Of a stretch of 51,771 nucleotides of DNA, positions 2,521 to 25,820 are shown in pieces (position 1 is the first letter of the stretch; each line of letters opens with the position of its first letter). Position numbers and translations under genes: made by a program. Source of the DNA: Phycisphaerae bacterium (GTDB lineage Bacteria > Planctomycetota > Phycisphaerae > UBA1845 > PWPN01); contig JABRVU010000157.1 of assembly GCA_039961895.1 (NCBI GenBank), positions 1 through 51,771 on the forward strand, read 5' to 3'. The notes beneath the pieces were generated by a model, which saw only the letters and a program-made list of their open reading frames with translations, did no database searches and was not told where the DNA came from.

Positions 2521-3480
2521 TCAGAGACGCTCGAGGGCGTCCTCCAGCGCGCCGTCCACAAGGTGGGTGTAGACCTGGGTGGTCGACAGGTCCCGGTGAC
2601 CGAGGGCCCGCTGGACCACCAGGATATCTCCGGTCCGGCTGTAGAGGTGGGTGGCGAAGGTATGCCGGAGCGCATGCGGGCTGAGCTTCTTGTCGATGCC
2701 TGCGGCCTTGAGCCAATACTCGAGCCGCCTGGCCACCTGCCGCTCGCAGAGTCGCTCCCCGCGGTTGGAGAGGAACAAAGCCCGGCATTCGCCGTCGCCC
2801 CGGCGTCGGCGCTCGACCAGGTAACTCCGCAGGAGGGATCGCAGAGTGGACTTTAGAAACTTCACTTGCGGGACGGAGCCCTTGGCGAGCACGCGGAGAT
2901 GCTTGGCGTCGAGGTCCACGTCCTCGATGTCAAGGTCGACGAGTTCCTGCAGCCGGATGCCGGTCCCGAGGAAGACCTCGATGATGACGCGGTCCCGGAC
3001 TGCCAGCGAGGATGCCCTGCCGCGAAGTTCCTTGAGCAGACGGCGCTTCTCGGCCTCGGTCAGAAACTTGGGGGGAGTCCGGGGAAGCCTGCGAAGGGTC
3101 AACGACCCGGCCGGATTCTCCCGGACGATTTCGTTCCGCTCGGCCCAGGTGAAGAACGACCGGACGGCCGCCTTGAACCGGTGCATGGACGCCGGCGACC
3201 GGACGCCGCCTCCGGCCGAGGTCGTCACCTGCGGTGAGGTCAACGCCTCGTCGATCATGGGGCTGGTCACCTCCTCCGGGACGATCCCCGGATGCCCCCG
3301 GAGGAGCGCCTCTGACAGGTACGAGAGGTCGCGCAGGTATGCGCTGATGGTGTTCTCCGAACGCCCTTCGGCCGCGAGCCTCCTGCCGAAGGCTTCCAAG
3401 GCTTCGGTGAAACCGGGCCGCGCGCTGGAAGGCTCAGGACTGCTCAGCAGCCGGAGACTCGATGGCGTCGTGTTCGTCAT
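2521..3480 (-). CDS. Tyrosine recombinase, XerC/XerD/phage-integrase family
   Basis: Full catalytic signature: Arg in TGIRLQE, HALRHTFATHL (HxxR), LGHRDLSTTQVYTHL (His...Tyr). The N-terminal core-binding region ENTISAYLRDLSYL is present. Confidence 0.9.
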   Translation of the reverse strand: MTNTTPSSLRLLSSPEPSSARPGFTEALEAFGRRLAAEGRSENTISAYLRDLSYLSEALLRGHPGIVPEEVTSPMIDEALTSPQVTTSAGGGVRSPASMHRFKAAVRSFFTWAERNEIVRENPAGSLTLRRLPRTPPKFLTEAEKRRLLKELRGRASSLAVRDRVIIEVFLGTGIRLQELVDLDIEDVDLDAKHLRVLAKGSVPQVKFLKSTLRSLLRSYLVERRRRGDGECRALFLSNRGERLCERQVARRLEYWLKAAGIDKKLSPHALRHTFATHLYSRTGDILVVQRALGHRDLSTTQVYTHLVDGALEDALERL

Positions 3481-4344: not shown

Positions 4345-4619
4345 AGGAAATCCTGGAACGGAACAGCGAGGCCGTCCGCGAGGCTGGACGGCAACTGGTC
4401 GAGATCGGTGCGGAGCTGGCTGCCGGGAAAATCGACGATGCCCTGGCCCGGCTCGATACCGCACGGCAGGCTTACCCCGAGTGGGAGGAGCTCGATCAAG
4501 CCGCGGCTGATATCGAAGGGGTGATCCGCGACCGCGAAGGAATGCTCGCCGTCCAGCACATCCTGGCCGAGATCATCGGCACGGTCCTCGGGTCGGCCTT
4601 GAGGTCGAGGCTGCCCTGA
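4341..4619 (+). CDS. Hypothetical helical protein (92 aa)
   Basis: ATGA overlap with the upstream stop. Its TGA overlaps the terL ATG by 1 nt (TGATG), so it looks translationally coupled on both sides. Confidence 0.5.
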   Translation: MKEILERNSEAVREAGRQLVEIGAELAAGKIDDALARLDTARQAYPEWEELDQAAADIEGVIRDREGMLAVQHILAEIIGTVLGSALRSRLP

Positions 4620-6145
4620 TGGCCCGGATATCCGCCAAGGAGCGCAAACTGGCGGAGACCCTGGCGGACCCGGTCCTCTGGGGGCAGGGATACCTGCGCA
4701 ACCGCGACGGGGGACAACGGGTCTACTGGCCGCACCAGGCGGAAGACCTGCTCTGCCCGGACAAAAATATCATCCACCTGGACGGACGCGACGTGGGCAA
4801 GAGCGTCTGCATCACCACCGATGCCCTGCATTTCGCCTTCACCAACCGAGGCTGCCAGGGACTCGTCGCCGCGCCCCACCAAGGGCATCTCGACACGCTG
4901 ATCGAGGAGATCGAATTCCAGCTCGACGCCAACCCGGACCTCATGGTCAGTGTGGCTCTCACCAAATACGGCAAGCCCAAGATTCACCGCAAACCATACT
5001 TCCGGCTCGAATTCACCAACGGCGCGATCCTCTACTTCCGTCCCGCCGGGGCTTACGGCGACGCTTTCCGCTCGCTGCATGTGGACCGGGTCTGGGTGGA
5101 CGAAGGGGCTTGGCTCACCGAGCGGGCCTGGAAAGCCCTTCGCCAGTGCCTGAAGTCGGGCGGCAGACTGCGCATCTATTCGACGCCCAACGGGCTGCGT
5201 GACACGACCTATTACCGCTTGACCGGCTCGACCCAGTTCCGGGTGTTCCGCTGGCCTTCCTGGCTGAACCCGGCGTGGACCCAGGAGCGGGAGGCCGAGT
5301 TGCTGGAGTTCTACGGCGGCCGGGACAGCGCGGGCTGGCAGCACGAGGTGGCCGGCGAACACGGCAAGCCTTCATACGGCGCGTTCAACATCGAGCACCT
5401 CAATCTCTGCCGACAGGATGTGGTCGAGTACCAGAAGGTCGTCGTCACCGGCGGGGAACTGCGTGGCTGCGCCACCGAGGAGGAATCCCACGACCGCCTG
5501 GAGATGCTACTCAATCTCATGCCGCGGACCGGCGTCTTCTGGATCGGAGGAGACTTGGGATACACCAACGACCCGACCGAGATCGTCGTGTTCCAGGAGA
5601 TCGAACTGCCCGAGCGCAGGATCGTCAAGCTGGTTCTGCGGGTCCGCATGGAGCACGTGGCCTATCCTCACATCGCCCAGACCATCGCGCTTCTGGACCG
5701 GTATTACACAGCCGCGGGCATCGGCGTGGACAACGGCGGCAACGGAATGGCCGTCGTTCAGGAACTGCTGACCCTGGACAAGTACAAAGACCTGGCTCTT
5801 CAGGGGCGGCTGCGCGGTTACGACTTCGGGGGCATGACCACCTTGGCCGTGCGCGACGGCCACGAGGTCAGGAAGCGGACCAAGGAATTCATGACCAGCC
5901 TTATCGCCGGGGCGCTCCAGCGACGTCAGCTTGTGTTCCCCATCGACGACCTGGAGATCGAGGATCAGTTCACCACCCACACCTACACGCTGCACGACGG
6001 GCGCATCGTCTATTCCAAGGGCAATGACCACATCATTGACGCCGTGCGCTGCGCCATGCTGGCCCGGGAGCAGTCCACCCTCAACCAAGTGGGCGAGGAG
6101 ACGGTCTCTCTGGTGCCGCTGACGACCGATCCGGTGTTCATCTGA
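4619..6145 (+). CDS. terL: Terminase large subunit
   Basis: 508 aa. Walker A-like LDGRDVGKS, Walker B VWVDEGAW, and a C-terminal nuclease-like region IGGDLGYTNDPTEIVVF ... DHIIDAVRCA. Confidence 0.85.
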   Translation: MARISAKERKLAETLADPVLWGQGYLRNRDGGQRVYWPHQAEDLLCPDKNIIHLDGRDVGKSVCITTDALHFAFTNRGCQGLVAAPHQGHLDTLIEEIEFQLDANPDLMVSVALTKYGKPKIHRKPYFRLEFTNGAILYFRPAGAYGDAFRSLHVDRVWVDEGAWLTERAWKALRQCLKSGGRLRIYSTPNGLRDTTYYRLTGSTQFRVFRWPSWLNPAWTQEREAELLEFYGGRDSAGWQHEVAGEHGKPSYGAFNIEHLNLCRQDVVEYQKVVVTGGELRGCATEEESHDRLEMLLNLMPRTGVFWIGGDLGYTNDPTEIVVFQEIELPERRIVKLVLRVRMEHVAYPHIAQTIALLDRYYTAAGIGVDNGGNGMAVVQELLTLDKYKDLALQGRLRGYDFGGMTTLAVRDGHEVRKRTKEFMTSLIAGALQRRQLVFPIDDLEIEDQFTTHTYTLHDGRIVYSKGNDHIIDAVRCAMLAREQSTLNQVGEETVSLVPLTTDPVFI

Positions 6146-6183: not shown

Positions 6184-6279
6184 ATTCGATTTGACGAAAA
6201 TCCACAAAACCCAGCTTTTTCCCCGGATATCCCGTTTCGATGTCAAGTCCCGTCCCCGGTCAAAAGGAATCTCATGCAG

Positions 6280-7611
6280 CTATTCCGTCGATTCCGGGAG
6301 TTCGAGTAGGAACCGCCATGCCGGTACCACCTCGATGGTCCCGCCGCCGGCCTCGATCCGCTCGTCCTCGTTCCGGGTCACGATGGTTCCGGTTTTCAGT
6401 TTCAGTTCGGCCATCGCCTCACCCAAGGCCGCGGTCTCCCGTTTCCGCGTTTGCGGCTCCGCCAGGGACTCGCACACCTGGACCAGCATCTTGGGCCGGC
6501 CGCGCATCGGTACGATGAAATCGACCTCCCGGCCGGTCCTGGTCTTGTAATAGTAGATTTCCGGATGAAGACGCCGGAGCGTGGTGAACACGAGGTTCTC
6601 CAGGAGATGGCCGGAGTTGACCAGAATTCCTGACGACACCGAAGTGACCAGTGCGTGATCGATGCAGTAGACCTTTTTCGGATTGGTGTTGCTGCGCGCA
6701 AGGGATGGGTCGAATATGCGCACGGTGAACAGGAAATAGGCGTCCTCGAACCATTCCAGGTAATCCGACACCGCGGACTTCGGAGCCTTGTGGCCCAGCG
6801 ACTTGAGATAGCCCGTGAGACTGTTGACCGAGTAATGCGAGGCGGTGTTGTCCACCAGCCAGTGCGCCAGATCGGTCACCGCCTTCGGGTGTGAAACGTC
6901 GTGGCGCTCGACCAAATCCCGAAACAGGATGGTGTGGAAATATTCCTGGTGGGTCTTGATTCTTAAATGTCGGGAGAGACCGGCGACCTCTGGAAAGCCG
7001 CCGGTCTCCCAGTATTCCTCGAAGGCCTTCTGAACGAGGAGCCGCTTCTTCGTCGACAAAGCGCCCTCGCTCTCGATTCCTTTGTAGTCCAGGAATTCCC
7101 TGAACGAAAAGGGAAACATCTCCCACGAAAGCGCCCGCCCGCGCATTTGGGTTGCGATCTCCTTCGACAGCATCCGGGCCGACGAACCGGTCAGATACAC
7201 CTCGCATTTTTCCGTACGCATCAGGCGGTCGACGAAGGGTTCCCAACCGGGGGCGGCCTGAATCTCGTCAAAGAAGCAGTAGACTGTCTCGGTGTTTTTC
7301 TTCTCAGGATAGATGGAGTAATAGGCCTCGGCGATCAGGCCGAGATTGTCCTGCCGCAGGTTGTGGAGGCGGTCGTCGAAAAAATTCAGATACAGAATGT
7401 TCTGCCGGAGGACCCCGCCGTCCAACAGCCGCTGAATGACCTGAAACAGGTATGTCGACTTGCCGCTCCGGCGCACCCCGATGCAGACGGCGGCTTTGCC
7501 GTGAACCGTCTCGATACGCAAACGCCGGGGCACTCCGGTCTCCAGCCGGGTTTCCTGGAAGTCCAGGATGATGGATTTGATCGTTTCTATCATAAGGTCA
7601 CTCCTGGCCAT
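6280..7611 (-). CDS. AAA+ ATPase with C-terminal DUF4143-type domain (COG1373-like)
   Basis: ATG at 7611 (MARSDLMIET); the ORF extension to 7869 is discounted. Walker A GVRRSGKST, Walker B CFFDEIQ. C-terminal GREVDFIV...LVQVCES looks PD-(D/E)xK-like. Sampled lines are about 52% GC versus about 63% in neighbouring genes. Confidence 0.8.
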   Translation of the reverse strand: MARSDLMIETIKSIILDFQETRLETGVPRRLRIETVHGKAAVCIGVRRSGKSTYLFQVIQRLLDGGVLRQNILYLNFFDDRLHNLRQDNLGLIAEAYYSIYPEKKNTETVYCFFDEIQAAPGWEPFVDRLMRTEKCEVYLTGSSARMLSKEIATQMRGRALSWEMFPFSFREFLDYKGIESEGALSTKKRLLVQKAFEEYWETGGFPEVAGLSRHLRIKTHQEYFHTILFRDLVERHDVSHPKAVTDLAHWLVDNTASHYSVNSLTGYLKSLGHKAPKSAVSDYLEWFEDAYFLFTVRIFDPSLARSNTNPKKVYCIDHALVTSVSSGILVNSGHLLENLVFTTLRRLHPEIYYYKTRTGREVDFIVPMRGRPKMLVQVCESLAEPQTRKRETAALGEAMAELKLKTGTIVTRNEDERIEAGGGTIEVVPAWRFLLELPESTE

Positions 7612-7633
7612 GGTTCTTTCCGGTTTCAGCCTC

Positions 7634-7689
7634 ATCCGGAAATAAATATAGCCGGATAGGCCTGTGAGTGTCAAGGGATATTTCCGGAT
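7634..7689. repeat. Perfect 11-bp inverted repeat upstream of the ATPase gene
   Basis: ATCCGGAAATA at 7634-7644 and TATTTCCGGAT at 7679-7689. A third half-site-like CCGGATA lies at 7652-7658. Confidence 0.7.
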
Positions 7690-7724
7690 ACGGTCTGGCA
7701 TTCCCAGCCCGAACAACCCGCCCA

Positions 7725-7755
7725 CCGACGTTCCTTCCCCGCCTCCGGTAGATAA
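7725..7755 (+). promoter_or_regulatory. Bipartite motif copy c: CCGACG-N18-TAGATAA
   Basis: CCGACG 7725-7730, spacer ends CTCCGG, TAGATAA 7749-7755. About 36 nt upstream of the portal ATG. Confidence 0.6.
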
Positions 7756-7790
7756 CCCCAGGGGCGGGCTTTCCCCGCCACACGGCGCGA

Positions 7791-9437
7791 ATGTCGCGCC
7801 CACAAGGGCAAGAAACAGAGAGGACCCCGGTGGAAACACGAAGCAACCCGACACCCCACAGCCCGGCATCCGGATCGGGCGCTGAGCCGACGCCGCTTTC
7901 AGCGGACGGTCTGGTGCTCGTTCCTCTGGCAGCCGCCGCGGCCTTGGACCCGTCCGTGTTCAGCAAGGTCAACGCCTCCGAAGCGATCCCGGCCTCCTGG
8001 GAGGACCGGGCGCGCAAGGCCTGGGAGTACTACCTCGAAGAGCCGCTGGTGAAGAACTGCGTCAACTCCTGGCGCACCTTCGCCGTGGGCGAAGAAATCA
8101 AGATCGCGGGCGATGACGAGAAGGTGAAATGGGAGGCCGTGGATGTCGCCGACCGCCTGGGCGTCTCCGAGTTCGTCAAGGACATGATTCTCCAGCTCCT
8201 GGTCAAAGGCGACGCCGTCGGATTCAAACGCTACACCAAGGACGGCAAGGATCTGGAGGAACTGGTCTGCGTCAACCCGGTTTCGGTCAAGGTCAAGTAC
8301 GCCCAAGGGCGGCTCGTCGAAGCCCGGCAGACGCCGGAAGACAATCCCGCCGCGGACGAGGGGCTGGACCTGCCCGTGGAGCAGGTGCTCCACCTCAAGT
8401 GGGACGCGCCGGCCTTCTCGCCACGGGGCAACTCGCTCGTCCTTCCCGCGTTCCAGTCCATCGAACTTCTCCGCGACTACCGCCGGGCCGAACAGGCCAT
8501 CGCCAAGCGCTGGGCCACGCCATTCAGGCTTCTCAAAGTCGGTGGCGCGTTCGGCCAGAAGATGGTCATGCCCGACCAGAAGATGCTCGAACAGGTCCGG
8601 GACATGGTCAACAAGATGGACCTCAAGAGCGGCTTGGTCGTCCCTTTCTACGTCACGGTCGAGACCCACGGCACCGAAGGGCAGGTCCTCAACGTCGAGG
8701 ACAAGGTCAAGGAGGTGAAGGAGGACATCGTCGTGGCGCTAGGCCTCTCGCGGTCGCTGGTGACCGGGGACGGCCCGAACTTCGCCACGGCCTCGGTGAG
8801 CCTCCAGAAGATGCTGGTGATGATCCGGGAGATCAAGCAGGCCGCCCGGAGCATCCTGAACTGGATATTCAACGACTGGCTGGAGCTCAAAGGCTGGGAA
8901 GACAAGACGCTCCAGTTCCTGTTCAACGACCTTGATCCCTCGGACGCGGTCGATTTCAAGCGCCTGCTCATCGAGCTCTACGACCGCAAGCTCATCAGCC
9001 GTTCGAGCCTGCAACTGAAGATGGACCTCGACCCTGACATCGAGGCGGCCAACCGGGAGACCGAGAAGCGCTCGGTGGACATGCTCGACGAAAAGCAGAT
9101 CAAGCCCATCGTCGATATGGTGACCGCCGGAATCATGGGCGTCGAGACGGCCCAGGAGATGCTCGGCCTCGATCCGGCGAAGAACCCGACGGGAAGTCGC
9201 GCCGAGGCATCGTGGGCCGGGCCGTTCGCCCGCGCAAGCATCGCCGCCGCCGTGTGCGACGATTGCGCGCATTTCGACGGCGATCTCAACCACTGCCGGG
9301 TCCAACGAAACGAAACCACCTTCGATACACCGGTCTGCCGTTTCTTCGACCCGAAGACCGCCGCGATGGAACGCGGTTCCGACCGGGAGAAGGAACCGAC
9401 GTCCCGGCAGGCAGCGTGCCGGGAGTGCGGGGGATGA
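7791..9437 (+). CDS. Portal protein
   Basis: 548 aa, lying between terL and the MuF gene. Size and position are typical of a portal. The start is uncertain: ATG 7791 has no SD, while GTG 7830 follows GAGAGG. Cys-rich C-terminal tail. Confidence 0.7.
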   Translation: MSRPQGQETERTPVETRSNPTPHSPASGSGAEPTPLSADGLVLVPLAAAAALDPSVFSKVNASEAIPASWEDRARKAWEYYLEEPLVKNCVNSWRTFAVGEEIKIAGDDEKVKWEAVDVADRLGVSEFVKDMILQLLVKGDAVGFKRYTKDGKDLEELVCVNPVSVKVKYAQGRLVEARQTPEDNPAADEGLDLPVEQVLHLKWDAPAFSPRGNSLVLPAFQSIELLRDYRRAEQAIAKRWATPFRLLKVGGAFGQKMVMPDQKMLEQVRDMVNKMDLKSGLVVPFYVTVETHGTEGQVLNVEDKVKEVKEDIVVALGLSRSLVTGDGPNFATASVSLQKMLVMIREIKQAARSILNWIFNDWLELKGWEDKTLQFLFNDLDPSDAVDFKRLLIELYDRKLISRSSLQLKMDLDPDIEAANRETEKRSVDMLDEKQIKPIVDMVTAGIMGVETAQEMLGLDPAKNPTGSRAEASWAGPFARASIAAAVCDDCAHFDGDLNHCRVQRNETTFDTPVCRFFDPKTAAMERGSDREKEPTSRQAACRECGG

Positions 9438-12400
9438 TCGGTGCGCTCGCGGCAGAACGTCCGCTCTCCCAAGCCGAGGCCATCCGCCTGGCCACGGAGA
9501 AAAGCGTCCGCGCCCGCAATCTCTATACGGAGCAAACGGTCGCCGAGCTGACCGCGATGCTTGCCGGGGCCGAGGAGGAGGTCCGCCGCGCTATCCTCCG
9601 CTACAAGAGTCTCGGCTCCCTCCCCGACAACAAGCTGGCCGCTCTCGAAGGTCTCAAGAAACTCCAAGCCGACATCCAGGAGACCACGAGCCGCCTGCAC
9701 CGGGAGCAGACGCTGCTTTTCCGGAAGACGGCCAAGACATCCTTCCGCCAGGGCATCTACCGAGGCATCGACGAGTTCGCCGCGGCCCAGCTTCCCTTTT
9801 ACCGCGACTTGACCCCGGAGGGCATCGACAAGCTCGCCACCCGAGTGTTCACCCTGGTGGATACCGATGCCCTCGATTTCATGACCAACTACAACCTGGT
9901 CCTGGCCGGCGACGTCAACCGCGAGCTGGCCGACGGCATCAAACGGGTCGTGATGGGCGGCATCGCCACCGGCAAGGGCGTCGAGGACATCGTCCGCGAC
10001 CTCGGGCGCGTGGTGAAAGACCCGGAGTCCTTCCGCTACGCCGGTTCCAAGGTGTTCACCAAGGCGCAGTATCGCATGGAGGTGATCGCCCGCACGGAGG
10101 TCCTGCGCGCCCATAACCAGGGGCGACTCAAGTTCCACGACCGGGTCGGAGTCCGGAAACTCGAATGGATGACCATGGAGGACGAGCGGGTCTGCCCGGT
10201 CTGCGGGCCGCTGGACGGCAAGGTGTTCGACACGAACCGCTTTCCCCGGCAACCGGCCCATCCCAACTGCCGCTGTACGAGTGTGGTCGCTTGGCCCCTG
10301 GTGATCTGCGGAGGAGAGCTGGGGGCGAAAGCCGCGGCTGAACCCGCCGCGTGCATCATCCCGCCCCAGGCCATCGAAGAGCAGGCGAAGGCCAAGGCGG
10401 CGGAAGACGCGAAGCTCAAGGCAGCCTTCGAAGGCGGACAGATCGCCGACCTGAACACTCTAAGCGTGAAGCAACTCCAGACCCTGGCCAAGCAGAACGG
10501 CGTCTCCATCGCCCGGACCAAAGCCGACTTCATCCATCTGCTCGACGCGGCGGAGCCGGGCGTGGACCACTCCACCCTCTCCGGAGCCGCCCTCGACGCC
10601 AAGCTCAAACAACACAAGATCGGCCTGCTCCGCACCAAGGACGACCTGATCCAACTCCTGGCGCAGAAACAGGCGTCCCTCAAGCAGGCGCAGCAACTGG
10701 CGGACCAGCTCAAGAAGATTCCGCCGAGCGGCGGGCTGCATGACCTCACCGTGGTCGAGCTGCAGGAGATGGCCAAAGCCAAGGGCGTCTCCCTCAACAT
10801 GACCAAGCAGGACGTGATCGACCTGCTCGACGAGTTGGAACCCGGCGTCGATCACAAGGCGCTCCAAGGCGCGACCCTGATCGACGCCAAGAAGAAGCAC
10901 CACATCGGCCCGCTCAAGAACAAGCAGCAGCTTGTCAAGGCGCTGGAAAAGGCGGCCGGTGAGGAACTGGCGGAAAAGGCCAAGAAGGAAGCTCTCGAAG
11001 CAGCCGAGAAGGCCGCAATCAACAAGGCGAAACAGGCTGTCGAACAGACCGCTGCAAAGGTGATCGTGCCGGAGTCCCCCGCAGGATACGCCGACTTCCT
11101 CTCGGCGGTGAAAGATGCGGAATCGGCGCTCGCGGCTTCGCACGGTCTGCCGCAGGAGATACTCGAAGGACACGCCAAAGAGCTCGCCCTCAAGAAAAAG
11201 CTATTTCAGGATCAGGTCGCGGCCATGAAGGTGGGCGACCTCAAGACCCTGGCCAAGGACACAAAGCTCAAGCACTGGCAGTGGGCGAACAAGGACGAAC
11301 TGGTCACTCTGCTTACGGAGACCGACCCGGCCAAGATCGAGGCCGCCAAGGCCGGCATCGAAACGAAACACGCCACCTGGTTGGAAAAGCACGGCGGCAA
11401 AAAGAAGGCCGCCGCGCCGGAATCGGCGAAGCCCGCGCCGACTCCGAAACCAACGCCACCGTCCCCGCCGGTTTTCACCAAGAAAGGCGCTCAGTTCGAG
11501 GAGACGGACGCGGCATGGATCGCCAAGGGCAAGCCGGGGAACTTCAAGCCCGCGGGCAAGGCCCAGGTCGGCGGCGCGCACAACAAGGAGTTCTGGACCG
11601 ATGAAAAAGGCGACCGCTGGCTGTTCAAACCGGTGGAACGTTCCGGCGACGACTTCATCGCCTATGGAGAGGAAGTCGCCTACAAGATCGGACGCCTCAT
11701 CGATCCGAACGCGGTCGAGGTCCGCACCATCCGCTTGAATGGACGCCTCGGCTCCATCCAGAAGTGGCGGACCGACCTCAAGGAGCGTTTCGACTTCGCC
11801 GGATTGGACCTCGCAGACCTCACCACCCTCGACATCGAGCAGATTCAGCGGGAGCACGTCGTCGACTGGTTGATCTCCAATCATGACGGCCATGCCAAGC
11901 AATTTCTGCGGGCTCGTGACGGGAAGGTCTACGGCATCGACAAGGGGCAGATCTTCAAATACCTGGGTGAGGACCGCCTGGCCGTCGACTATCACCCGAA
12001 CTCCAAGTACGGAGAACAAGAGCCCTTTTACAATACGGTTTTCCGCGCCGCCAAGGAAGGCAAGGTCAAAATCGATCCCGCGGCGACTCTCCGCTACATC
12101 CGCGAGGCGGAGAAGATCGCCGACGAGGATTACCTGGCCATTCTGCGTCCCTATGCCGAGGGACGGTTCGGAGGGGACGAATCCCGCAAGCAAGCCTTTT
12201 ACGATTTAGCACTTGCTCGGAAAAGGAATCTTCGGCGCGACTTCGAGGGCTTCTATGCGGACGTGTTGGGCCGTCGGGACTTCCGTTTCGAGGATGTGTT
12301 GGAGGCGCTGCCGAAGACGCGTTTGGGGCCGACCGAGGAGGCGCTTCTTGAGGAAGTCCGCTCCCTCGGCTGGCAAGGGAAGGTGCTACCCTTCGACGAG

Positions 12401-13999
12401 GACGACATCGAGGATCAGAACGCCCTGGTCTTCGTCGAGACCTTGAAGGGAAAGCAGCGGACCGTGGTCAAGATGAAAGTTCGGCCTGAAGCGGAGGGAA
12501 AGCTTCTTGAGGCGCTGCGCAAGGCGGGAGTCGACACCACAGCCGCCCGGGTGGGTGAAGCGCTGCCGCAGGACGTTTTCGCCCAGGACATATTGGCCGC
12601 GGTGAAAACGGTCAACCACCACGCCACGGACCAGCAGTACAACCAGGGGACGCTCAAAAAGGCTGCGGACCATCTGAAGGCGTTAAAGCGCCTGGCTGAC
12701 TCGGACGATCCCGACGAACAAGCCATGGCCCGAAGCTACATCGACTGGATTGAGAAGGTCCAGGAAGCAGCCCGTGAACACAAACCGGTCGCCGGACGGT
12801 TCGATGTATATCTCAAGAAACATGCCGCGCCGGAAAAGAAACCCAAAAAGGTTCCCTTCACCGTGCGCCGGACGAAGGTGCTTCAGGCCAAACGAGAGCT
12901 CAAGAACGGCGAACTCGTTGTCGTGGACGAGGCGGCGGACAACTCGGCGCTGTTCCGCGGTCGTGCCATGAAGGCCGGCGAGCAGTTCGAAATCGATTTC
13001 GGCGACGGCACGCGCGCCGTCTACCGCCCGTGGTCGGACAAGAACCTCTACGCCCAGCAAGGGGAATTCGAAATGGTCCTGCCAGACAGGCCGGACGTCA
13101 AGAGCCTCGAAAGGGCTATGGAACGGATGGAATCGTTGGGCATCAAGGCAGGTGCGGCCACGCCGCAGGACGCCGAGCTTCTCTATCTTCACAAGCAAGC
13201 CTACCTCGCCAAGGTGGACCGAGAGCCGGACTACAAGCGGCTGGTCGAGGACCTTGATCGCCGGGCGGCGAGCAAGGAGGAACGCATCCGCGAGATGCGC
13301 GGCTTCTGGGAAAAACGGCTCGGAGTGAAAGACATCACCCGCATGCCGGGCTACGACCCCATGGGCGAATACCAGGCCGCTTTCAAGAATCCCGCCAAGC
13401 GAGCAGGCTACAGGCATCAATACCGCTTCGACATTTCCGACGCGGACATCGAGAAGCAGATGAAGGGATACGGCCTTCATCACCGGCTGACCAACGGCGA
13501 GGACGTGGCGTCGTTCATCGACGCGGCGCTGGGAAACAACGGAGCCATGGTGAGTACGGTCGAGAAGCTGCGCGCCGGGGTGCCGGTGGGTGGGATGTCG
13601 CCGGAAGCGGACATGGACACCGGCGGTGCGAGCTATTTCTTCACCCGGATCAAGAAGCTCCCGACGGCCGGAGGGCCGTCCGACACGGGGCTCTACTTCA
13701 AGAAGCGGATGCTCCGTCGCATGGACGCCATCAGTTACGACCACGACGCCTTCGGGCGGGTGAGGGACGAATACGTCTCGAACCACCGGGGGAGCACGCC
13801 CGAGGAGTGGAAACAGTTCGCCCGCCGAGGTAGCAACGAGACGATCTTCAAGTACTCGGTGACCCTGCTGGACAACATCGACGTGATCGTGGTCGGAAGC
13901 GAGCGGGAAAAACAACGGCTGTTGGAGGTCTTCCGCAACCGAAAAATCATGAAGCTGCCCGACGGCCGCAAGATCGAGGAGATCGTACTGGTGAGGTGA
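9434..13999 (+). CDS. Giant MuF-domain polyvalent virion protein (1521 aa): MuF + HeH/SAP-like repeats + PI3/4-kinase-like domain + unassigned C-terminal domain
   Basis: ATG 9434 in an ATGA overlap with the portal stop. The MuF (SPP1 gp7) signature ends ...EDERVCPVCGPLDGKVF...PAHPNCRCT (about 9850-10290). Kinase-like motifs: LFKPVERSGDDF, NHDGHAKQ, GIDKGQ (11621-11950). Confidence 0.8.
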   Translation: MIGALAAERPLSQAEAIRLATEKSVRARNLYTEQTVAELTAMLAGAEEEVRRAILRYKSLGSLPDNKLAALEGLKKLQADIQETTSRLHREQTLLFRKTAKTSFRQGIYRGIDEFAAAQLPFYRDLTPEGIDKLATRVFTLVDTDALDFMTNYNLVLAGDVNRELADGIKRVVMGGIATGKGVEDIVRDLGRVVKDPESFRYAGSKVFTKAQYRMEVIARTEVLRAHNQGRLKFHDRVGVRKLEWMTMEDERVCPVCGPLDGKVFDTNRFPRQPAHPNCRCTSVVAWPLVICGGELGAKAAAEPAACIIPPQAIEEQAKAKAAEDAKLKAAFEGGQIADLNTLSVKQLQTLAKQNGVSIARTKADFIHLLDAAEPGVDHSTLSGAALDAKLKQHKIGLLRTKDDLIQLLAQKQASLKQAQQLADQLKKIPPSGGLHDLTVVELQEMAKAKGVSLNMTKQDVIDLLDELEPGVDHKALQGATLIDAKKKHHIGPLKNKQQLVKALEKAAGEELAEKAKKEALEAAEKAAINKAKQAVEQTAAKVIVPESPAGYADFLSAVKDAESALAASHGLPQEILEGHAKELALKKKLFQDQVAAMKVGDLKTLAKDTKLKHWQWANKDELVTLLTETDPAKIEAAKAGIETKHATWLEKHGGKKKAAAPESAKPAPTPKPTPPSPPVFTKKGAQFEETDAAWIAKGKPGNFKPAGKAQVGGAHNKEFWTDEKGDRWLFKPVERSGDDFIAYGEEVAYKIGRLIDPNAVEVRTIRLNGRLGSIQKWRTDLKERFDFAGLDLADLTTLDIEQIQREHVVDWLISNHDGHAKQFLRARDGKVYGIDKGQIFKYLGEDRLAVDYHPNSKYGEQEPFYNTVFRAAKEGKVKIDPAATLRYIREAEKIADEDYLAILRPYAEGRFGGDESRKQAFYDLALARKRNLRRDFEGFYADVLGRRDFRFEDVLEALPKTRLGPTEEALLEEVRSLGWQGKVLPFDEDDIEDQNALVFVETLKGKQRTVVKMKVRPEAEGKLLEALRKAGVDTTAARVGEALPQDVFAQDILAAVKTVNHHATDQQYNQGTLKKAADHLKALKRLADSDDPDEQAMARSYIDWIEKVQEAAREHKPVAGRFDVYLKKHAAPEKKPKKVPFTVRRTKVLQAKRELKNGELVVVDEAADNSALFRGRAMKAGEQFEIDFGDGTRAVYRPWSDKNLYAQQGEFEMVLPDRPDVKSLERAMERMESLGIKAGAATPQDAELLYLHKQAYLAKVDREPDYKRLVEDLDRRAASKEERIREMRGFWEKRLGVKDITRMPGYDPMGEYQAAFKNPAKRAGYRHQYRFDISDADIEKQMKGYGLHHRLTNGEDVASFIDAALGNNGAMVSTVEKLRAGVPVGGMSPEADMDTGGASYFFTRIKKLPTAGGPSDTGLYFKKRMLRRMDAISYDHDAFGRVRDEYVSNHRGSTPEEWKQFARRGSNETIFKYSVTLLDNIDVIVVGSEREKQRLLEVFRNRKIMKLPDGRKIEEIVLVR
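10451..11325 (+). repeat. Protein-level tandem repeats of HeH/SAP-like helix-extended-helix modules inside the polyvalent protein
   Basis: Unit 1: LNTLSVKQLQTLAKQNGVSIARTKADFIHLLDAAEPGVDHSTLSGAALDAKLKQHKIGLLRTKDDLIQLL. Unit 2: LHDLTVVELQEMAKAKGVSLNMTKQDVIDLLDELEPGVDHKALQGATLIDAKKKHHIGPLKNKQQLVKAL. A further half unit, VGDLKTLAKDTKLKHWQWANKDELVTLL, lies at about 11231-11325. Confidence 0.7.
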
Positions 14000-14001
14000 G
14001 C

Positions 14002-14472
14002 ATGAAAGAGTTCATCGAAAAGGAAAAAGCCCGTCTGCAAGCACTCTTCGAGCCGTTCAACACCGGAGGCTCCTGGATGACGCTGGCGGACAAAGGCCGG
14101 ACGCCGGTCCGGCTCGGTATCGTGGACGGGTTCACCGTGACCCGCGTGGCCCCGCAATTCGACGCCGGCGGGAATTTGACGCGCATCGGTTTCTGGCTTC
14201 TCATCCGGCTCTCCGGATACGACGAGGGCTTCCAACACGCCCACACCATCAAGGTCGTCTCCTGGTCGCAGGACGACACCTACCTGCTCGATCTGCTCGA
14301 TGATCGGGACCGCAGGTTCCACATCGAGCTCATCTTCCCTGACCAGGAACCCAACGAGGCGGCGGACTGGAAGCGCTGGCGAGACTACAAGGCCGGAAAT
14401 CGGGACCGATTCGAACGGATCGACGCGGAGCTTCTGACCGAGCACACCCGCATTGCGGAGGAATGGGAATGA
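14002..14472 (+). CDS. Hypothetical protein (156 aa)
   Basis: ATG 14002, 3 nt after the polyvalent-protein stop and preceded by GGTGAGGTGAG. No family recognised. Confidence 0.6.
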   Translation: MKEFIEKEKARLQALFEPFNTGGSWMTLADKGRTPVRLGIVDGFTVTRVAPQFDAGGNLTRIGFWLLIRLSGYDEGFQHAHTIKVVSWSQDDTYLLDLLDDRDRRFHIELIFPDQEPNEAADWKRWRDYKAGNRDRFERIDAELLTEHTRIAEEWE

Positions 14473-14813
14473 AGCTCAGATACATGATCGAATACGCGCT
14501 CCGCGACCGTATCCGCAACCCGCGCTACGAACCCATCGGCGTCTGGGTTCAGGGCCCGGGACCGGGATTGGACCTGGTGATCGATTTCCTGCCCGGAAAC
14601 GCGGACGCCGAGGAAGACGCTCAGTGGGTGGTCAACCGGCTGGTCGAACAAGGAGTCAGCGGTCTGCCCGACGATTTTCTGGCCTACCACCAGGGCACTC
14701 TTTCCCAATACCGCGGCATGCGCGGTCCCGTGGTCGAAAGCGACGAATACCCGTCCGCAGAGGCCTGCGCCCGGTCGGTCATCGACCGGATCAAGTCGGG
14801 CCGCATCTCCTGA
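14469..14813 (+). CDS. Hypothetical protein (114 aa)
   Basis: ATG 14469 in an ATGA overlap with the upstream stop; alternative ATG at 14463. No family recognised. Confidence 0.55.
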   Translation: MKLRYMIEYALRDRIRNPRYEPIGVWVQGPGPGLDLVIDFLPGNADAEEDAQWVVNRLVEQGVSGLPDDFLAYHQGTLSQYRGMRGPVVESDEYPSAEACARSVIDRIKSGRIS

Positions 14814-14821
14814 TCCCCCCT

Positions 14822-14852
14822 CCGACACTTTTCGACGGTCTCCGGTAGGTAT
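14822..14852 (+). promoter_or_regulatory. Bipartite motif copy d: CCGACA-N18-TAGGTAT
   Basis: CCGACA 14822-14827, spacer ends CTCCGG, TAGGTAT 14846-14852. The flank CTGATCCCC..CCGACACTT is shared with copy e. Confidence 0.65.
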
Positions 14853-14955
14853 CCAAGCGACAGGGCTCTCGGCCTGATTTCGGGGTTCACCCCGGGCACG
14901 GGCCGACCGCCCACCGGCATCAACCGGATTTGTCGCGACATGACCGGAGAACCGA

Positions 14956-17900
14956 ATGGAGCTTTTCGCAACTGACCGTGAACGGCTGGCGTTCCTCCTC
15001 GAAACGGACGCCGCCCTGGACCTGGACTTCGAGGCGCTCGAGGCCCAGGCCGAGGCGGCTGCCGAGGAGCCGTCGCCGGAAGAGCGGCCAAAATACATCA
15101 CCAACTACATCGGCTCGAAGCAGAAGCTGGTCGACTGGATTTGGAAACACACGCCGGAGGGGGTGGAATCCGCGGCCGACGCCTTCTCTGGTTCGGCGGT
15201 CGTGGCCTACATGTACAAGACCAAGGGCCTGCGGGTACTGGCCAACGACCGGCTGCGCTACTGCCACCACGCGGCCCGGGCGATCATCGAGAACGACAAG
15301 GTGCGTCTCTCCGATGAGGACCTGGAGGCGCTGCTCGCGGACAACGCGAAGGCCGGAACCTTCGTCCGGGACAACTTCAAGGGCATCTTCTTCGCCAAGG
15401 GCGTCCACGGCCTGATCGACACGATCCGGTCGAACATCGACAAACTCTCGGGTTTCAAGAAAGACATCGCTCTCTTCGCCCTGGGCAAGACCTGCATGTC
15501 CGGCAAGGGCGGCTTCGGGCATTTCTCGTCGTCGACCCGCTACGGCAAGCGCGAGGACACCCCGGAGGAATTCAAGGAGCGGCTGCGCAAGAACGTGGCC
15601 CGCATCAACGCCCTCGTTTTCGACAACGGCAAGGAGTGCAAGGCATCCCGCAAGGACATCAACGACTTCCTGCCGGAGGCCAAGGCCGACCTCGCCTATT
15701 TCGATCCGCCCTACGCCACGGAGTTTTCGACCACCAACTACGAGAAATCCTACCACTTCGTGGAAGGACTGATGACCTATTGGGAGGGGCTGACCCTCGT
15801 CGAGGATTCCAAGACCAAGCACTACGAGACCGACCACAAGACCGTGACCCGCGCCAACGCCGCGGAGTTCTTCGAGTCCTTCCTCGGAAACGCCAGGCAT
15901 ATCCCGCACTGGCTGATTTCATACCGCGACCACGCCTATCCGAACGAATCGGAGATGCGGCGGATCATCGCCTCCCTGGGACGGGATTCGTCGATGCGCT
16001 CCCACGATCACCATTACGCCATCACATCCCGGCACGGCGAGGCGTCCCACGCCAAGGAACGTCTGTTCATCTGCCGCAAGGCCGAAGGTGTGGAGCGGTC
16101 CGCCAAGGCGTCCACAGAGGACAGCCTGCGGGCGGAAGCCGTCTGGGAGGAAACCGAGAATGAGGTCCGCTTCCGTGTCCGGAACCCGGACGAGTTCGAA
16201 CCCGACAGCTTCCGCCGCAAGCCCCTGGAGGGCGTCGACGGCGTTGCGATCATCATCGGACGCTTGAAGAAGGAGTTCGTGCCCGAGGGCGGCAATCCGC
16301 GCGCCATGGTGTTGCAGGCCTACCGGTTCGTCCGCAAGACGGAGAAGAACCCGGACGGCTGGACCGTGGAAAAAGCCAAGGAGTGGATCGACAAGCACGA
16401 AGCCGGACGGGCCGTGGATGCCGCCCTGCGCGTGGAGGAGAACCTGATCGCTCTGGCGGATGCGCCGCTTGGCGAATCGCTGGACCTCTTGAGCTGCCAG
16501 GCCGGGAAAGCGGAGTCGGTCCGCGTCACCGGTTTCATGGGCAGCAAGTACCTGATGCTCGGCTGGATCGAAAGCCATGTCCCCAAGGACGCGGAGAGCA
16601 TCCTCGATGCTTTTTCAGGCGGGGCCAACGTCGCCTATCACTTCAAACGCAAAGGGCTGAAAGTCATCGCCAACGATCTCCTGCGGTATCCCCACCATCT
16701 GGCGCGGGCCGTGGTGGAGAACTCCAGCGAGACTCTGAGCGACGAGGACGTGGACCGAATCCTCGCCCCCAATGCGGACGCGGGCACCTTTATCGTCGAT
16801 CACTTCTACGGCTACTACTACACCAAGCCGGTGCTCCGGTGGCTCGACCAAGTCTGGGCGAACATCCAGAAGCTTCACGGCTACAAGAAAGATCTGGCGC
16901 TGGCCGCGCTCGGCACGACCGTCAAGGCCAAGAGCGCCTTCGGTCAGTTTTCGCGGTCCAAGATGCACCGCAAGGCAGACCTCGACACGGATGCCAGCCT
17001 GGAGCAATCCCAGCTCTCCAATCCGCCGCTGTCCAAGTTCATCGAGTCGTTCCGGCGATCGGTGGGCCAGCTCAACCGGCTGGTCTTCGACAACGGCAAA
17101 GAGTGCAAGGCCTTCAACCTGGATGCGGCCGAGGCGGTCCGGCGATTCGGCGCGGACGTTCTGTATCTGGACCCGCCCTACGTCACCGAGTTCGGCAGCA
17201 ACGATTACGAGGACTCCCTGCATTTCATCGAAGGGCTCATGACCCGCTGGGCGGACAAGGAACTCCAGGACAATCCCCGCCGCAACTATCCGTCCCGGAC
17301 GCGTTACACCAAGGAATCGATCCGTTCCCTGATGGAGACGATGGCAGCTGACGCCCGGGGCAAGTACGGCACGGTGCTCCTGTCATACCGCGACCGGGCT
17401 TTCCCGCGGGAAGAGGAAATCAAGGAGATATTCGCCGAGCACTACGGTCTCGTCCGAGTCCGCGGCATGGAGGTGGACTACAACATCGCCAAGGACATCG
17501 GCCGGGAAGGCAAACACGCCCGGGAACTGCTCTTCGTCGCTTCCAAATCACGCGGTGCGGCGCGCTCCAAAGCGGATACGCGGGCACCGGCGGCATGTCA
17601 CACCTCGTTCCCCGTGGAGCTGTCGTTCGATACGTTTTCCGGGCTCCAGACCGAAGCGGCGGCATTGGACCAGGCCGCGGGCGATCCGCAGTTCACCTTC
17701 ATCCTCTGCCGGGCCGGCACGAACAAGAACGGCGACCACTTCACCCCAGACGAACTGGCCGCCCGCTACATGACGGCGATCAACAAGAAGATCGACCTGA
17801 AGCATTCCCAGGATTTCACCGACATCGTCGGCGGCATTGTGGGGGCGGATTACGTGGAGGACGAAAGCGGCGGCCGGATCGAGTGCGCGGGCGAACTCTA

Positions 17901-18819
17901 TGTCTCCGACAGCCCGCACGCGCAGTTGGCCTACAAGCTCATCCGCAAAGGGATCATCTCCCAGGTCTCCATGGAATGCGACTACGAGGAAGGCGAGTGC
18001 TCGATCTGCGGCAAACGCGTCGTTTCGAAGAGCGATTACTGCGTCCACCTGCGCAAGAACAAAGGCGGCGAGCTCCAGGGGCAGCCCGTCTACGAAATCC
18101 TCCACGGCGTCACTTTCACCGGGCTCGGGCTTCTCGACCGCAAAGGCGCGGACGAAAACGCCCGCATCCTGAAAGTCGCCGCGGCGGAAAACGATGGTTC
18201 GACAACCCACTCTGAAGGAGGTCCGACAATGGACGAGAAACACAAGGAAACCGAGGAACGGGAAGCGGATGCCGCCAAGAAGAAGGACGACGGCGGCGGC
18301 GGGACCGCGCCCGATGACAAGACCCGGCTCAAGGAACTGGAGCGGGAGAACAAGGAACTCAAACAGCAGGTTCTCGCGCTGCAGAAGCAGCTCGAGGAAC
18401 TGGAGGCGGAGAAAAAGGCCGCCGCGAACCGGAGCCGAGCCCAGAAGCTCCTGCGCAAGATCGAAAAGAGCGGGCTGGCATTCGAGAGCGACGAGGATCG
18501 CGAACAGGAGTTGAGCCGTCTGGCCGGTCTTTCCGACGACGCCTTCGCCGCCAGCGAAGCCGCTTTCGAGCGGATGATGAAGGCCGGGCCCCGCGCTCAC
18601 GCCGACGACAAGGACGCCAAGGACCGAGGAGCCGGAGCGGAAACCGCGAAGGCTTCATCCGGCGGCGACGATCCGCCTCTTCGCAGCGACGCGGGCGTCC
18701 GTCCGAAGGACGTGGAAGACAAAAAGACGAGCCTCGAGGACCGGCTGAAGAGCGGCTTCATGGCCGCCTACCGGCAGCGAGTGGCGACGGCGACCGGAGA
18801 ACCGGTTTCGACCAACTGA
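14956..18819 (+). CDS. Fusion protein: two tandem Dam-like (D12 class) N6-adenine DNA methyltransferase modules + prohead serine protease-like domain + coiled-coil scaffold
   Basis: ATG 14956 after GGAGA. Module 1: YIGSKQKL, DAFSGSAVV, DPPY (15703-15714). Module 2: FMGSKYLM, DAFSGGANV, DPPY (17170-17181). Protease-like: IDLKHSQDFTDIVGGIVGADYVEDESG...GIISQVSMEC. C-terminal: KELERENKELKQQVLALQKQLEELEAEKKAA. Confidence 0.8.
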   Translation: MELFATDRERLAFLLETDAALDLDFEALEAQAEAAAEEPSPEERPKYITNYIGSKQKLVDWIWKHTPEGVESAADAFSGSAVVAYMYKTKGLRVLANDRLRYCHHAARAIIENDKVRLSDEDLEALLADNAKAGTFVRDNFKGIFFAKGVHGLIDTIRSNIDKLSGFKKDIALFALGKTCMSGKGGFGHFSSSTRYGKREDTPEEFKERLRKNVARINALVFDNGKECKASRKDINDFLPEAKADLAYFDPPYATEFSTTNYEKSYHFVEGLMTYWEGLTLVEDSKTKHYETDHKTVTRANAAEFFESFLGNARHIPHWLISYRDHAYPNESEMRRIIASLGRDSSMRSHDHHYAITSRHGEASHAKERLFICRKAEGVERSAKASTEDSLRAEAVWEETENEVRFRVRNPDEFEPDSFRRKPLEGVDGVAIIIGRLKKEFVPEGGNPRAMVLQAYRFVRKTEKNPDGWTVEKAKEWIDKHEAGRAVDAALRVEENLIALADAPLGESLDLLSCQAGKAESVRVTGFMGSKYLMLGWIESHVPKDAESILDAFSGGANVAYHFKRKGLKVIANDLLRYPHHLARAVVENSSETLSDEDVDRILAPNADAGTFIVDHFYGYYYTKPVLRWLDQVWANIQKLHGYKKDLALAALGTTVKAKSAFGQFSRSKMHRKADLDTDASLEQSQLSNPPLSKFIESFRRSVGQLNRLVFDNGKECKAFNLDAAEAVRRFGADVLYLDPPYVTEFGSNDYEDSLHFIEGLMTRWADKELQDNPRRNYPSRTRYTKESIRSLMETMAADARGKYGTVLLSYRDRAFPREEEIKEIFAEHYGLVRVRGMEVDYNIAKDIGREGKHARELLFVASKSRGAARSKADTRAPAACHTSFPVELSFDTFSGLQTEAAALDQAAGDPQFTFILCRAGTNKNGDHFTPDELAARYMTAINKKIDLKHSQDFTDIVGGIVGADYVEDESGGRIECAGELYVSDSPHAQLAYKLIRKGIISQVSMECDYEEGECSICGKRVVSKSDYCVHLRKNKGGELQGQPVYEILHGVTFTGLGLLDRKGADENARILKVAAAENDGSTTHSEGGPTMDEKHKETEEREADAAKKKDDGGGGTAPDDKTRLKELERENKELKQQVLALQKQLEELEAEKKAAANRSRAQKLLRKIEKSGLAFESDEDREQELSRLAGLSDDAFAASEAAFERMMKAGPRAHADDKDAKDRGAGAETAKASSGGDDPPLRSDAGVRPKDVEDKKTSLEDRLKSGFMAAYRQRVATATGEPVSTN

Positions 18820-18835
18820 CAAAGGAGGAATGACC

Positions 18836-19198: not shown

Positions 19199-19216
19199 TT
19201 ACAGGAGGAAAACGAT

Positions 19217-25671: not shown

Positions 25672-25820
25672 GGGACGCGTTTTTCCTCGCCTACGGCGGG
25701 CTCCACTGGAGTTTCTCGGAAACACGGGCGCTGCCGCTCTCGGTCCGCCGCGAATTCGTGGAGGCACTGGAGCGGCAGCTTGCTTTTGAGCGTGAAGAAA
25801 TGGAGCGCAGGCGCACATGA
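24994..25820 (+). CDS. Tail assembly chaperone, -1 frameshift product (gpGT analogue)
   Basis: Slip at G GGT TTT (25641-25647). The -1 frame opens only at 25638 and runs to TGA 25818-25820, which overlaps the tape-measure ATG (ATGA). The extension reads ...GFFVSRSSLVRDAFFLAYGGLHWSFSETRALPLSVRREFVEALERQLAFEREEMERRRT. Confidence 0.65.
25641..25647 (+). promoter_or_regulatory. Slippery heptamer G_GGT_TTT for programmed -1 ribosomal frameshifting
   Basis: X_XXY_YYZ pattern in the zero frame of the 24994 gene, followed by a second candidate T_TTT_TTG. Confidence 0.6.

Follow-up and report, generated by a model that had tools for sequence, protein, structure and literature searches.

A MuF protein with kinase-like and ADP-ribosyltransferase-like domains

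We analysed a stretch of 51,771 nucleotides from a Phycisphaerae bacterium (assembly GCA_039961895.1, contig JABRVU010000157.1), hereafter the window, and found that it encodes a giant MuF protein in which a phage head-packaging domain is followed by a predicted kinase and a putative ADP-ribosyltransferase (ART). The open reading frame (ORF) lies at 9434–13999 on the plus strand and specifies 1521 amino acids (aa) plus a stop. A description of this gene made earlier from the DNA letters (the original prediction) had given the same ORF. It is open throughout, without internal stops, and an independent Joint Genome Institute (JGI) gene call on the 95-kb source metagenome contig gives the identical 1521-aa product. 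The motif strings quoted in that prediction, together with a Pro/Ala/Lys linker, are all found where it had placed them. A family annotated as of unknown function, phrog_6577, matches residues 46–1368 of the protein (E = 2.7e-236).

The MuF gene starts with an ATG that shares bases with the stop codon of the preceding portal gene (7791–9437, plus strand), which passes the Portal_Mu cut-off (E = 3.3e-8) and stays below that of Phage_portal (E = 1.2e-7, 31.7 bits vs 39.1). With the large terminase at 4619–6145, the gene order is terminase-portal-MuF, and the MuF gene adjoins the portal gene in the head-morphogenesis module.

The first 300 residues (9434–10333, plus strand) make up the N-terminal MuF, or SPP1-gp7, minor-capsid module, with the Pfam core at residues 168–282. 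This assignment, also part of the original prediction, is borne out by curated models of both Pfam (Phage_Mu_F, PF04233: E = 3e-15, 57.4 bits vs a cut-off of 29.6) and NCBIfam (TIGR01641 phageSPP1_gp7: 58.8 bits vs 39.65), by many PHROG matches annotated as minor head protein or head morphogenesis, and by the adjoining portal gene. SPP1 gp7 is a DNA-binding head protein. The window protein resembles SPP1 gp7 and Mu gpF in its N-terminal domain, which passes both curated models, and in the position of its gene after the portal gene. However, those are single-domain proteins of about 300–450 aa, while the window protein has 1200 extra residues.

The extra residues begin with a tandem duplication of a helix-extension-helix (HeH) unit of SAP/Rho_N-like type, at residues 340–410 and 435–504 (10451–10945, plus strand). 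The two copies are 54% identical to each other (E = 3e-18) and each begins with a helix-extension-helix motif; SAP and Rho_N of Pfam each match in two stretches but stay short of their curated cut-offs (19.5 and 21.7 bits). A third, degenerate HeH-like unit is weakly indicated at residues ~590–630 (11201–11323, plus strand) by a match to phrog_2724 (residues 594–630, E = 1e-4) and by the pattern KVGDLKTLAKDTK...KDELVTLLTE, which looks like the two repeats. It is followed at residues ~653–681 (11390–11476, plus strand) by the flexible linker rich in Pro, Ala and Lys, with KKKAAAPESAKPAPTPKPTPPSPP at ~654–679, as read from the sequence. Relatives have a linker at the same place, variable in length and composition.

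The kinase-like domain

Residues ~700–950 (11531–12283, plus strand) are predicted to form a protein-kinase-like domain of the PI3/4K-HipA-CtkA branch. An AlphaFold2 model built from 29 sequences (predicted local distance difference test (pLDDT) 92.1, predicted template modelling (TM) score 0.89) has the bilobal kinase fold with a helical C-lobe. Searched against the PDB with Foldseek, the model gave 840 matches at E<=1e-3, and all of the 50 matches listed are kinases. The best TM-score is that of H. pylori CtkA (0.58), a protein Ser/Thr kinase, followed by PI3K p110alpha, mTOR, PI4KIIIbeta and Vps34 (0.43–0.46) and by ordinary protein kinases (about 0.4).

The active site is intact, as judged from a 165-sequence alignment in which the denominators vary by column. 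The beta3 ATP-binding lysine K732 (WLFK; codon at 11627–11629, plus strand) falls within predicted strand 38–43 of the model (model numbering), in the segment LFKPVERSGDDF at residues 730–741, and is Lys in 148/148 homologues. The acidic alphaC residue at position 746 is kept in 151/152. The catalytic loop NHDGHAKQ (residues 816–823; 11879–11902, plus strand) holds the catalytic D818 (159/160) and N816 (145/160), and the DFG-equivalent GIDKGQ (residues 834–839; 11933–11950, plus strand) holds D836 (158/160) and G838 (146/160). This catalytic set (Lys, acidic alphaC residue, catalytic Asp and DFG Asp) is retained at 99–100% in sequences about 30% identical overall, which is hard to explain without catalysis. 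Two positions of the loop are less uniform: five residues after D818 the family has Gln in 67, Asn in 50 and Asp in 23 of 160 sequences (together 140/160; Gln in the window protein), and H820 is kept in 94/160 (59%).

The distance from D818 to D836 is 18 positions, or 19 residues counted inclusively, and is the PI3K-like spacing that had been counted in the original prediction. The catalytic segment of one family member, P0021 (DWMISNHDAHSGNFLRDRATGGIVGIDKGQAF), aligned to DNA-PKcs in a single-sequence PDB search at a non-significant E of 1.8. The D, H, N and G-I-D-x-G residues are in register there (counterparts GDRHLNN and GIDFGH in DNA-PKcs). Because this alignment is ungapped, the PI3K/PIKK-type spacing holds; the Asp-to-Asp spacing of 18 and the G-I-D-x-G of DNA-PKcs are exactly those of the window kinase.

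No curated family takes the domain in. The window protein scores below threshold with HipA_C (PF07804; 15.1–19.5 bits vs 30.5, over the catalytic loop) and with the SCO1664 family of NCBIfam (17.6 bits), and the Pfam search gave no match to PI3_PI4_kinase (PF00454). A search seeded with an alignment added further members. Among relatives, PI3_PI4_kinase reaches at most 23.3 bits vs 27.1, LepB_N is sub-threshold, Fam20C is also matched, and the HipA_C cut-off is passed by P0021 only (33.2 bits). PDB sequence searches with the C-terminal 869 aa and with the kinase profile returned nothing meaningful. The domain thus shares with HipA, CtkA, PI3K, PI4K and PIKK proteins the bilobal fold, a D-x-H-x-x-(N/Q) loop and weak HipA_C, PI3_PI4_kinase, LepB_N and SCO1664 matches, but it is 11–16% identical to them and under every Pfam cut-off, and the helical or FAT-type accessory domains of PI3K and PIKK proteins are not present in the window protein.

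Two narrower placements were rejected. The Asp-to-Asp spacing of E. coli HipA is 23 and so differs from that found here; neither HipA_N nor Couple_hipA matches anywhere in the window protein in Pfam, and the neighbouring genes have no helix-turn-helix or antitoxin family match, so there is neither a set of HipA N-terminal domains nor a HipB partner. The kinase group described in polyvalent proteins in 2017, known chiefly from Verrucomicrobia-Chlamydia and Bacteroidetes, is without a C-terminal subdomain and has its catalytic His and Asp separated by an insert (Iyer et al. 2017, PMC5512222); the window kinase has adjacent H-D, a helical C-lobe and the PI3K-like spacing instead.

Accordingly, the model and the conserved residues place this predicted kinase, its active site intact, in the PI3/4K-HipA-CtkA branch and outside every curated family. 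The PI3/PI4-kinase-like label of the original prediction was right at the superfamily level. Its description as a lipid or atypical kinase holds for the fold and fails for membership of Pfam PI3_PI4_kinase or HipA, and its substrate is no more likely to be a lipid than a protein or another non-lipid molecule.

The C-terminal module

The original prediction had also named an unassigned C-terminal effector-like domain. Such a region is present; it is in fact a fixed module of three parts. MID1 (residues 956–1135; 12299–12838, plus strand) is a small alpha/beta domain with a helical bundle, modelled with a pLDDT mostly of 85–95. MID2 (residues 1136–1300; 12839–13333, plus strand) is a beta-rich domain with helices. 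The ART-like domain (residues 1301–1521; 13334–13996, plus strand) is an alpha/beta domain of about 210 residues with a conserved H1350/Y1401/E1469 triad.

The C-terminal 567 residues were modelled with AlphaFold2 from 39 sequences (pLDDT 89.6). A Foldseek search of the PDB with this whole multi-domain model, for which the aligned range was not returned, gave no match at E<=1e-3; Thermus DarT takes all of the first four places (E = 3.7e-3 to 4.2e-2, probability 0.89–1.00, target TM-score 0.43–0.53). Matches to Rio1 kinase were dismissed as noise (E about 0.1, TM 0.07). In BFVD, Foldseek returned unnamed giant-virus proteins of 180–250 aa and, in a single long alignment of lower probability, a ParB-like protein of a Bacillus phage (probabilities 0.80–1.00), none of which supplies a functional label. 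A structure search of the kind proposed with the original prediction gave kinases for residues ~700–950 and a borderline DarT for the C-terminal part.

The triad is conserved in a 201-sequence alignment. H1350 (in LHHRL, residues 1348–1352) is found in 194/199 sequences (97%) and lies at the end of predicted strand 392–396; Y1401 (ASYFF, 1399–1403), in 183/198 (92%), at the start of strand 447–454; and E1469 (NETIF, 1468–1472), in 196/196 (100%), at the start of strand 515–519 (strands in model numbering). This strand-edge placement is as in ART cores. In addition, S1389, D1393 and D1431 are 100% conserved, R1405 is kept in 197/199 and position 1378 is always Lys or Arg. In the homologue alignments, conservation peaks at the motif residues of the kinase-like and ART-like domains, in agreement with the conservation expected by the original prediction (99–100% for the kinase catalytic set; 97%, 92% and 100% for H, Y and E).

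Sequence profiles give a different picture. Pfam searches with four sub-segments and with 19 ART-like domains at E<=10 gave no match for residues 955–1521, to ART, DarT or any other family; NCBIfam likewise gives none. A PDB sequence search with the ART-like profile found no match, and hhalign of this profile against the ADPrib_exo_Tox (R-S-E) profile of mycobacteriophage proteins described below gave a probability of 0.2%, so that no sequence relationship between the two kinds of ART is detectable. The H-Y-E guess of the original prediction, offered as speculative, thus survives in the triad and the DarT fold matches and fails at the level of a sequence-profile link. Based on the model, the C-terminal domain quite probably has an ART fold.

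DarT (DUF4433) proteins are the best structural matches of the domain, at borderline E, and none of the others listed is credible. DarT2 carries an ARTD-class H-Y-E motif, the same triad as here, and DarT enzymes ADP-ribosylate bases of single-stranded DNA (PMC11543638). The window domain differs from DarT in having no sequence-profile similarity, in its H-to-E distance (119 residues vs 135 in DarT1, H17 to E152) and in sitting after two obligatory accessory domains. In addition, no DarG-like macrodomain or NADAR antitoxin is found beside the window gene. T4 Alt is an ART packaged in the head and injected (PMC9503650); it belongs to the R-S-E clade, unlike the H-Y-E domain of the window.

All domains of the MuF protein are under purifying selection. 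In pairwise comparisons with eight close relatives, the ratio of nonsynonymous to synonymous substitution rates (dN/dS) is 0.04–0.24 across every domain: 0.05–0.17 in the MuF module, 0.08–0.14 in the kinase-like domain, 0.05–0.15 in MID1 and MID2 taken together (residues 956–1300) and 0.04–0.24 in the ART-like domain.

A recurrent cassette in a large family

The window protein is not a one-off; the uncharacterised family to which it belongs is very large. Among 1.84 billion representative proteins (clusters at 50% identity), a profile of the ART-like domain matched 2194 with E<=1e-3, and 460 when the limit was E<=1e-30. The domain is nearly always found at the extreme C-terminus of proteins of 1000–3200 aa, almost always MuF proteins. 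We scored the architecture by iterated local searches on 150 sequences, namely the best 149 representatives and the window protein: the kinase-like domain (KIN) is present in 109/150, MID2 in 143/150, the MuF N-terminus in 89/150 and the HeH repeats in just 20/150. Most sequences without domains are fragments. In most full-length homologues KIN-MID1-MID2-ART-like form a contiguous cassette of about 830 residues.

Within the cassette, MID1-MID2-ART-like travels as one unit and the kinase is a second mobile unit. A search with the C-terminal 567 residues returned 52 homologues, and homologues always have MID1 ahead of MID2 and the ART-like domain, even where the kinase is lacking. For example, gp15 of Pseudanabaena phage Pan1 consists of MuF and MID1-MID2-ART-like without the kinase (31% identity), and a set of actinobacterial proteins of about 700 aa (P0082–P0088) has MID1-MID2-ART-like without MuF or kinase (22–27% identity, 93–95% coverage). 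Actinobacterial ART-like genes of Streptomyces sp. (loci L006/L007, 8001–10259) are found in a mobile-element-like neighbourhood with Replic_Relax and GP88. At another locus (L009, 1525–5000; 45% identity), MuF (289 aa) and the cassette (869 aa) are encoded by two overlapping genes, with the same two small genes after them as in the window.

The region between MuF and the cassette is variable, with Zeta_toxin, NUDIX or DUF3626 domains in some relatives. Insertion of other effector domains at this place is what defines a polyvalent protein. The window protein combines at least two effector-type domains with a delivery domain, and its homologues vary combinatorially. It is therefore of a kind already known, a MuF polyvalent protein with protein-modifying enzymes. 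Like the polyvalent proteins of Iyer et al. 2017 (PMC5512222), it has a MuF packaging domain and several enzymatic effector domains in one giant polypeptide, its relatives swap in Zeta_toxin, NUDIX and DUF3626, and ARTs and protein kinases are among the protein-modifying domains of that class. Head packaging and injection have been proposed for polyvalent MuF proteins that bear ART and kinase domains (PMC5512222, PMC9503650). However, the MuF-fused ARTs named by Iyer et al. 2022 (PMC9503650) are Alt/VIP2 and N4-ART and not DarT-like, and we found no description in the literature of this kinase family, the MID-ART-like module, the fixed KIN-MID1-MID2-ART cassette or its syntenic small genes. 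The cassette, the syntenic small genes and the recurrent pairing of kinase and ART are new here.

That pairing is also seen in mycobacteriophages. Searching phage genomes with tblastn, we found the same kinase domain in mycobacteriophage proteins at 29–35% identity (E down to 5e-30). McProf gp54, Onyinye gp16 and Phrappuccino gp195 have it with invariant WLxK, NHDxH and GIDKGQxFK; McProf gp54 and Onyinye gp16 join the kinase to a C-terminal ART in one polypeptide, and McProf gp54 has a MuF-like (VG15) head domain as well. In contrast to the window protein, the ART of these fusions is Pfam ADPrib_exo_Tox (R-S-E), and MID1, MID2 and the ART-like domain are absent. Metagenomic proteins also fuse the kinase domain to an ADPrib_exo_Tox ART. 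The kinase is thus paired with two unrelated ART clades, which argues for functional coupling and is the strongest hint that the two enzymes cooperate. The GenBank annotations of the mycobacteriophage fusions miss the kinase domain: two records read 'minor capsid and ADP-ribosyltransferase fusion' or 'ADP-ribosyltransferase', and Phrappuccino gp195 is a 'hypothetical protein'. After the mycobacteriophage kinase-ART fusions, too, comes a small gene that is conserved (McProf gp55 and Onyinye gp17, 35% identical).

Downstream genes and copies in genomes assigned to several phyla

Two small genes follow the cassette on the plus strand. The first (13996–14472, 158 aa) overlaps the stop codon of the MuF gene and is 37–98% identical in relatives; the second (14463–14813, 116 aa) is 40–96% identical. 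Both are found directly after the cassette in every complete related locus examined. Neither protein has a Pfam, PHROG or NCBIfam match. They diverge faster than the enzymes, with 46–48% and 50% identity where the kinase has 71–72% and the ART-like domain 62%. The products are plausible candidates for a cognate inhibitor, an immunity protein or a chaperone.

Further downstream, a 1287-aa ORF (14956–18819, plus strand) encodes a fusion with two D12-class N6-adenine DNA methyltransferase domains (Pfam 1.8e-43, two stretches). Its C-terminal part has weak PHROG matches to head maturation protease and major head protein and a charged coiled-coil tail, and the last 407 residues match positions 399–789 of phrog_27806 'DNA methyltransferase'. 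Since this ORF occupies the expected place of the prohead protease/scaffold gene, the methyltransferases may be targeted to the capsid.

The block from the portal to this methyltransferase-protease gene (window 7709–19996, 12.3 kb) is nearly identical in chromosomes or long contigs assigned to different phyla, a spread that is unusually broad for one phage lineage. A first lineage (L010–L016, L057), with 91–98% nucleotide identity over 12.3 kb, includes Nitrospiraceae, Desulfosoma, an Anaerolinea metagenome-assembled genome (MAG), the closed chromosome of Syntrophus buswellii DM-2, a 2.97-Mb contig of Desulfosarcinaceae and a 3.98-Mb chromosome of Zixibacteria. A second lineage (L033–L058), 92–97% identical, is found in Desulfosarcina alkanivorans PL12, Ectothiorhodospira shaposhnikovii DSM 243, a Verrucomicrobiota MAG, Desulfofustis, Desulfobulbus, Desulfocarbo and others. 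Closed genomes carry prophage copies, so binning artefacts cannot explain those.

Proposed function and alternative explanations

Taken together, the protein is probably a head-packaged polyvalent effector that delivers two enzymes from the capsid; its packaging, ejection, catalytic activities and targets are what we infer. By analogy with SPP1 gp7, the MuF domain would recruit a few copies into the procapsid via the portal. Tethered behind the HeH repeats and the flexible linker, the cassette would comprise an active kinase, two accessory domains and a DarT-like H-Y-E ADP-ribosyltransferase. The protein would leave the capsid with the DNA and could then phosphorylate and ADP-ribosylate host macromolecules early, ahead of any phage gene expression. 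The targets would most likely be transcription, translation or defence proteins, and possibly nucleic acid. Inside the producing cell, the products of the two small downstream genes may keep the enzymes in check or act as their chaperones. In function, the nearest parallel would be a combination of the packaged ART T4 Alt and the kinase gp0.7 of T7.

Several observations weigh against this effector reading. The C-terminal module is constant, whereas polymorphic effectors usually vary there, and this could point to a structural or assembly role. In the kinase, the window protein has Gln in place of the usual Mg-binding Asn, and H820 is found in only 94/160 sequences. The ART status comes from one borderline Foldseek match and motif conservation, with Pfam, PDB sequence search and hhalign all negative, and no ART family besides DarT is among the 50 PDB matches listed.

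The same domains would allow the cassette to act on nucleic acid, an explanation to which we give a small chance. The DarT-like domain would ADP-ribosylate DNA or RNA, be it host DNA, so that replication is arrested, or the packaged or ejected DNA of the phage itself, shielding it from restriction, with the HeH repeats binding DNA and the kinase modifying a nucleic-acid end, a nucleotide or an ADP-ribose adduct. The only structural relatives of the C-terminal domain, DarT, do modify bases of single-stranded DNA (PMC11543638), two or three HeH motifs of SAP/Rho_N-like type stand before the cassette, and beyond the two small genes lies the double D12 methyltransferase, whose fusion to a protease/scaffold-like C-terminus suggests that the phage packages DNA-modifying enzymes. 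The HeH matches nevertheless miss the cut-offs of Pfam, and the downstream genes match no family, so that neither a DarG-like macrodomain nor a NADAR partner stands beside the cassette. In the mycobacteriophages the kinase pairs with an Alt/VIP2-type ART (ADPrib_exo_Tox), a clade that typically modifies proteins, and CtkA, its nearest structure, is a protein Ser/Thr kinase. It is generally known that gp7 of SPP1 binds DNA, which would also suit an action on nucleic acid. MuF toxins have reportedly been described by Jamet et al. in 2017 as proteins that keep the MuF N-terminus and vary in the toxin domain at the C-terminus, with an immunity gene next in line. On this model the cassette would be a growth-arresting toxin, set free or delivered so as to kill competitors or superinfected cells, with the small genes protecting the lysogen or producer; we hold this to be less probable still. 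The strict synteny of the 158-aa and 116-aa genes across 37–98% identity and their faster evolution, typical of immunity or inhibitor partners, would fit, as would the bacteriostatic role of HipA-type kinases and DarT in toxin-antitoxin systems and the small gene after the mycobacteriophage fusions (McProf gp55, Onyinye gp17). However, the C-terminal module is not polymorphic, one family accounting for 2194 representative clusters, and the small proteins carry no immunity-family signature recognisable in Pfam, PHROG or NCBIfam. The genes are also part of a late structural operon between the portal and protease/scaffold genes, with overlapping stop and start codons, which is not the arrangement of an independently expressed lysogenic cassette.

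A purely structural role is improbable. Here the kinase-like and ART-like domains would be non-catalytic modules, perhaps internal head or ejection proteins that organise DNA ends, fill capsid volume or plug the portal, with their conserved polar residues used for binding. Such a role would agree with the invariant presence of MID1-MID2-ART-like at the C-terminus of a great many MuF proteins, the kinase-less Pan1 gp15 among them, with the missing ART sequence-profile match and with the Gln that replaces the Mg-binding Asn. Against it, the complete kinase catalytic set is 99–100% conserved in sequences about 30% identical overall, H, Y, E and five more invariant polar residues are likewise conserved in the ART-like domain, and MID-ART-like proteins occur without MuF in actinobacterial mobile-element contexts. 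A stronger form of the effector proposal, to which we likewise give little chance, is that kinase and ART would be one coupled capsid-delivered machine, silenced by the two cognate small proteins. As part of the same doubtful proposal, the kinase might prime a substrate for the ART, for instance by phosphorylating the same host complex or nucleic-acid end before it is ADP-ribosylated, or it might gate the ART, by analogy with the kinase-fold SidJ, which controls SidE ARTs. If so, this machine and the neighbouring double adenine methyltransferase, if capsid-targeted, would disarm very different hosts, and such a pre-loaded enzyme set would explain the near-identical prophage copies (91–98% over 12 kb) across phyla.

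For the head-packaged effector that we favour, timing would matter: proteins that enter with the phage genome act before phage transcription and are thus prime candidates for host takeover and counter-defence. Our analysis defines a large uncharacterised cassette in which a kinase with an intact active site and a probable ADP-ribosyltransferase stand behind a head-packaging domain, and it names catalytic residues and candidate partner proteins for testing. Cultured lysogens are available in Syntrophus buswellii DM-2, Desulfosarcina widdelii PP31, D. alkanivorans PL12 and Ectothiorhodospira shaposhnikovii DSM 243. It also corrects current annotations ('head morphogenesis protein', 'ADP-ribosyltransferase' or 'hypothetical'), which miss the kinase entirely.

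Other features of the window

The window represents the late region of a phage or prophage that is temperate and has a contractile tail. Besides the head module it contains a tail sheath gene (22648–24504), a tape measure gene (25817–29722) and baseplate genes. A tyrosine recombinase/integrase (2521–3480, minus strand; Phage_integrase 9.3e-41 and a SAM-like N-terminal domain) is found near the left end of the window, which fits a temperate life style.

Finally, a gene for an ATPase with AAA_14 and DUF4143 (6280–7869, minus strand) is carried on an insertion of about 1.46 kb (6248–7709) between terminase and portal. The closest relatives are without this insertion, and their flanks join window position ~6248 directly to ~7709.

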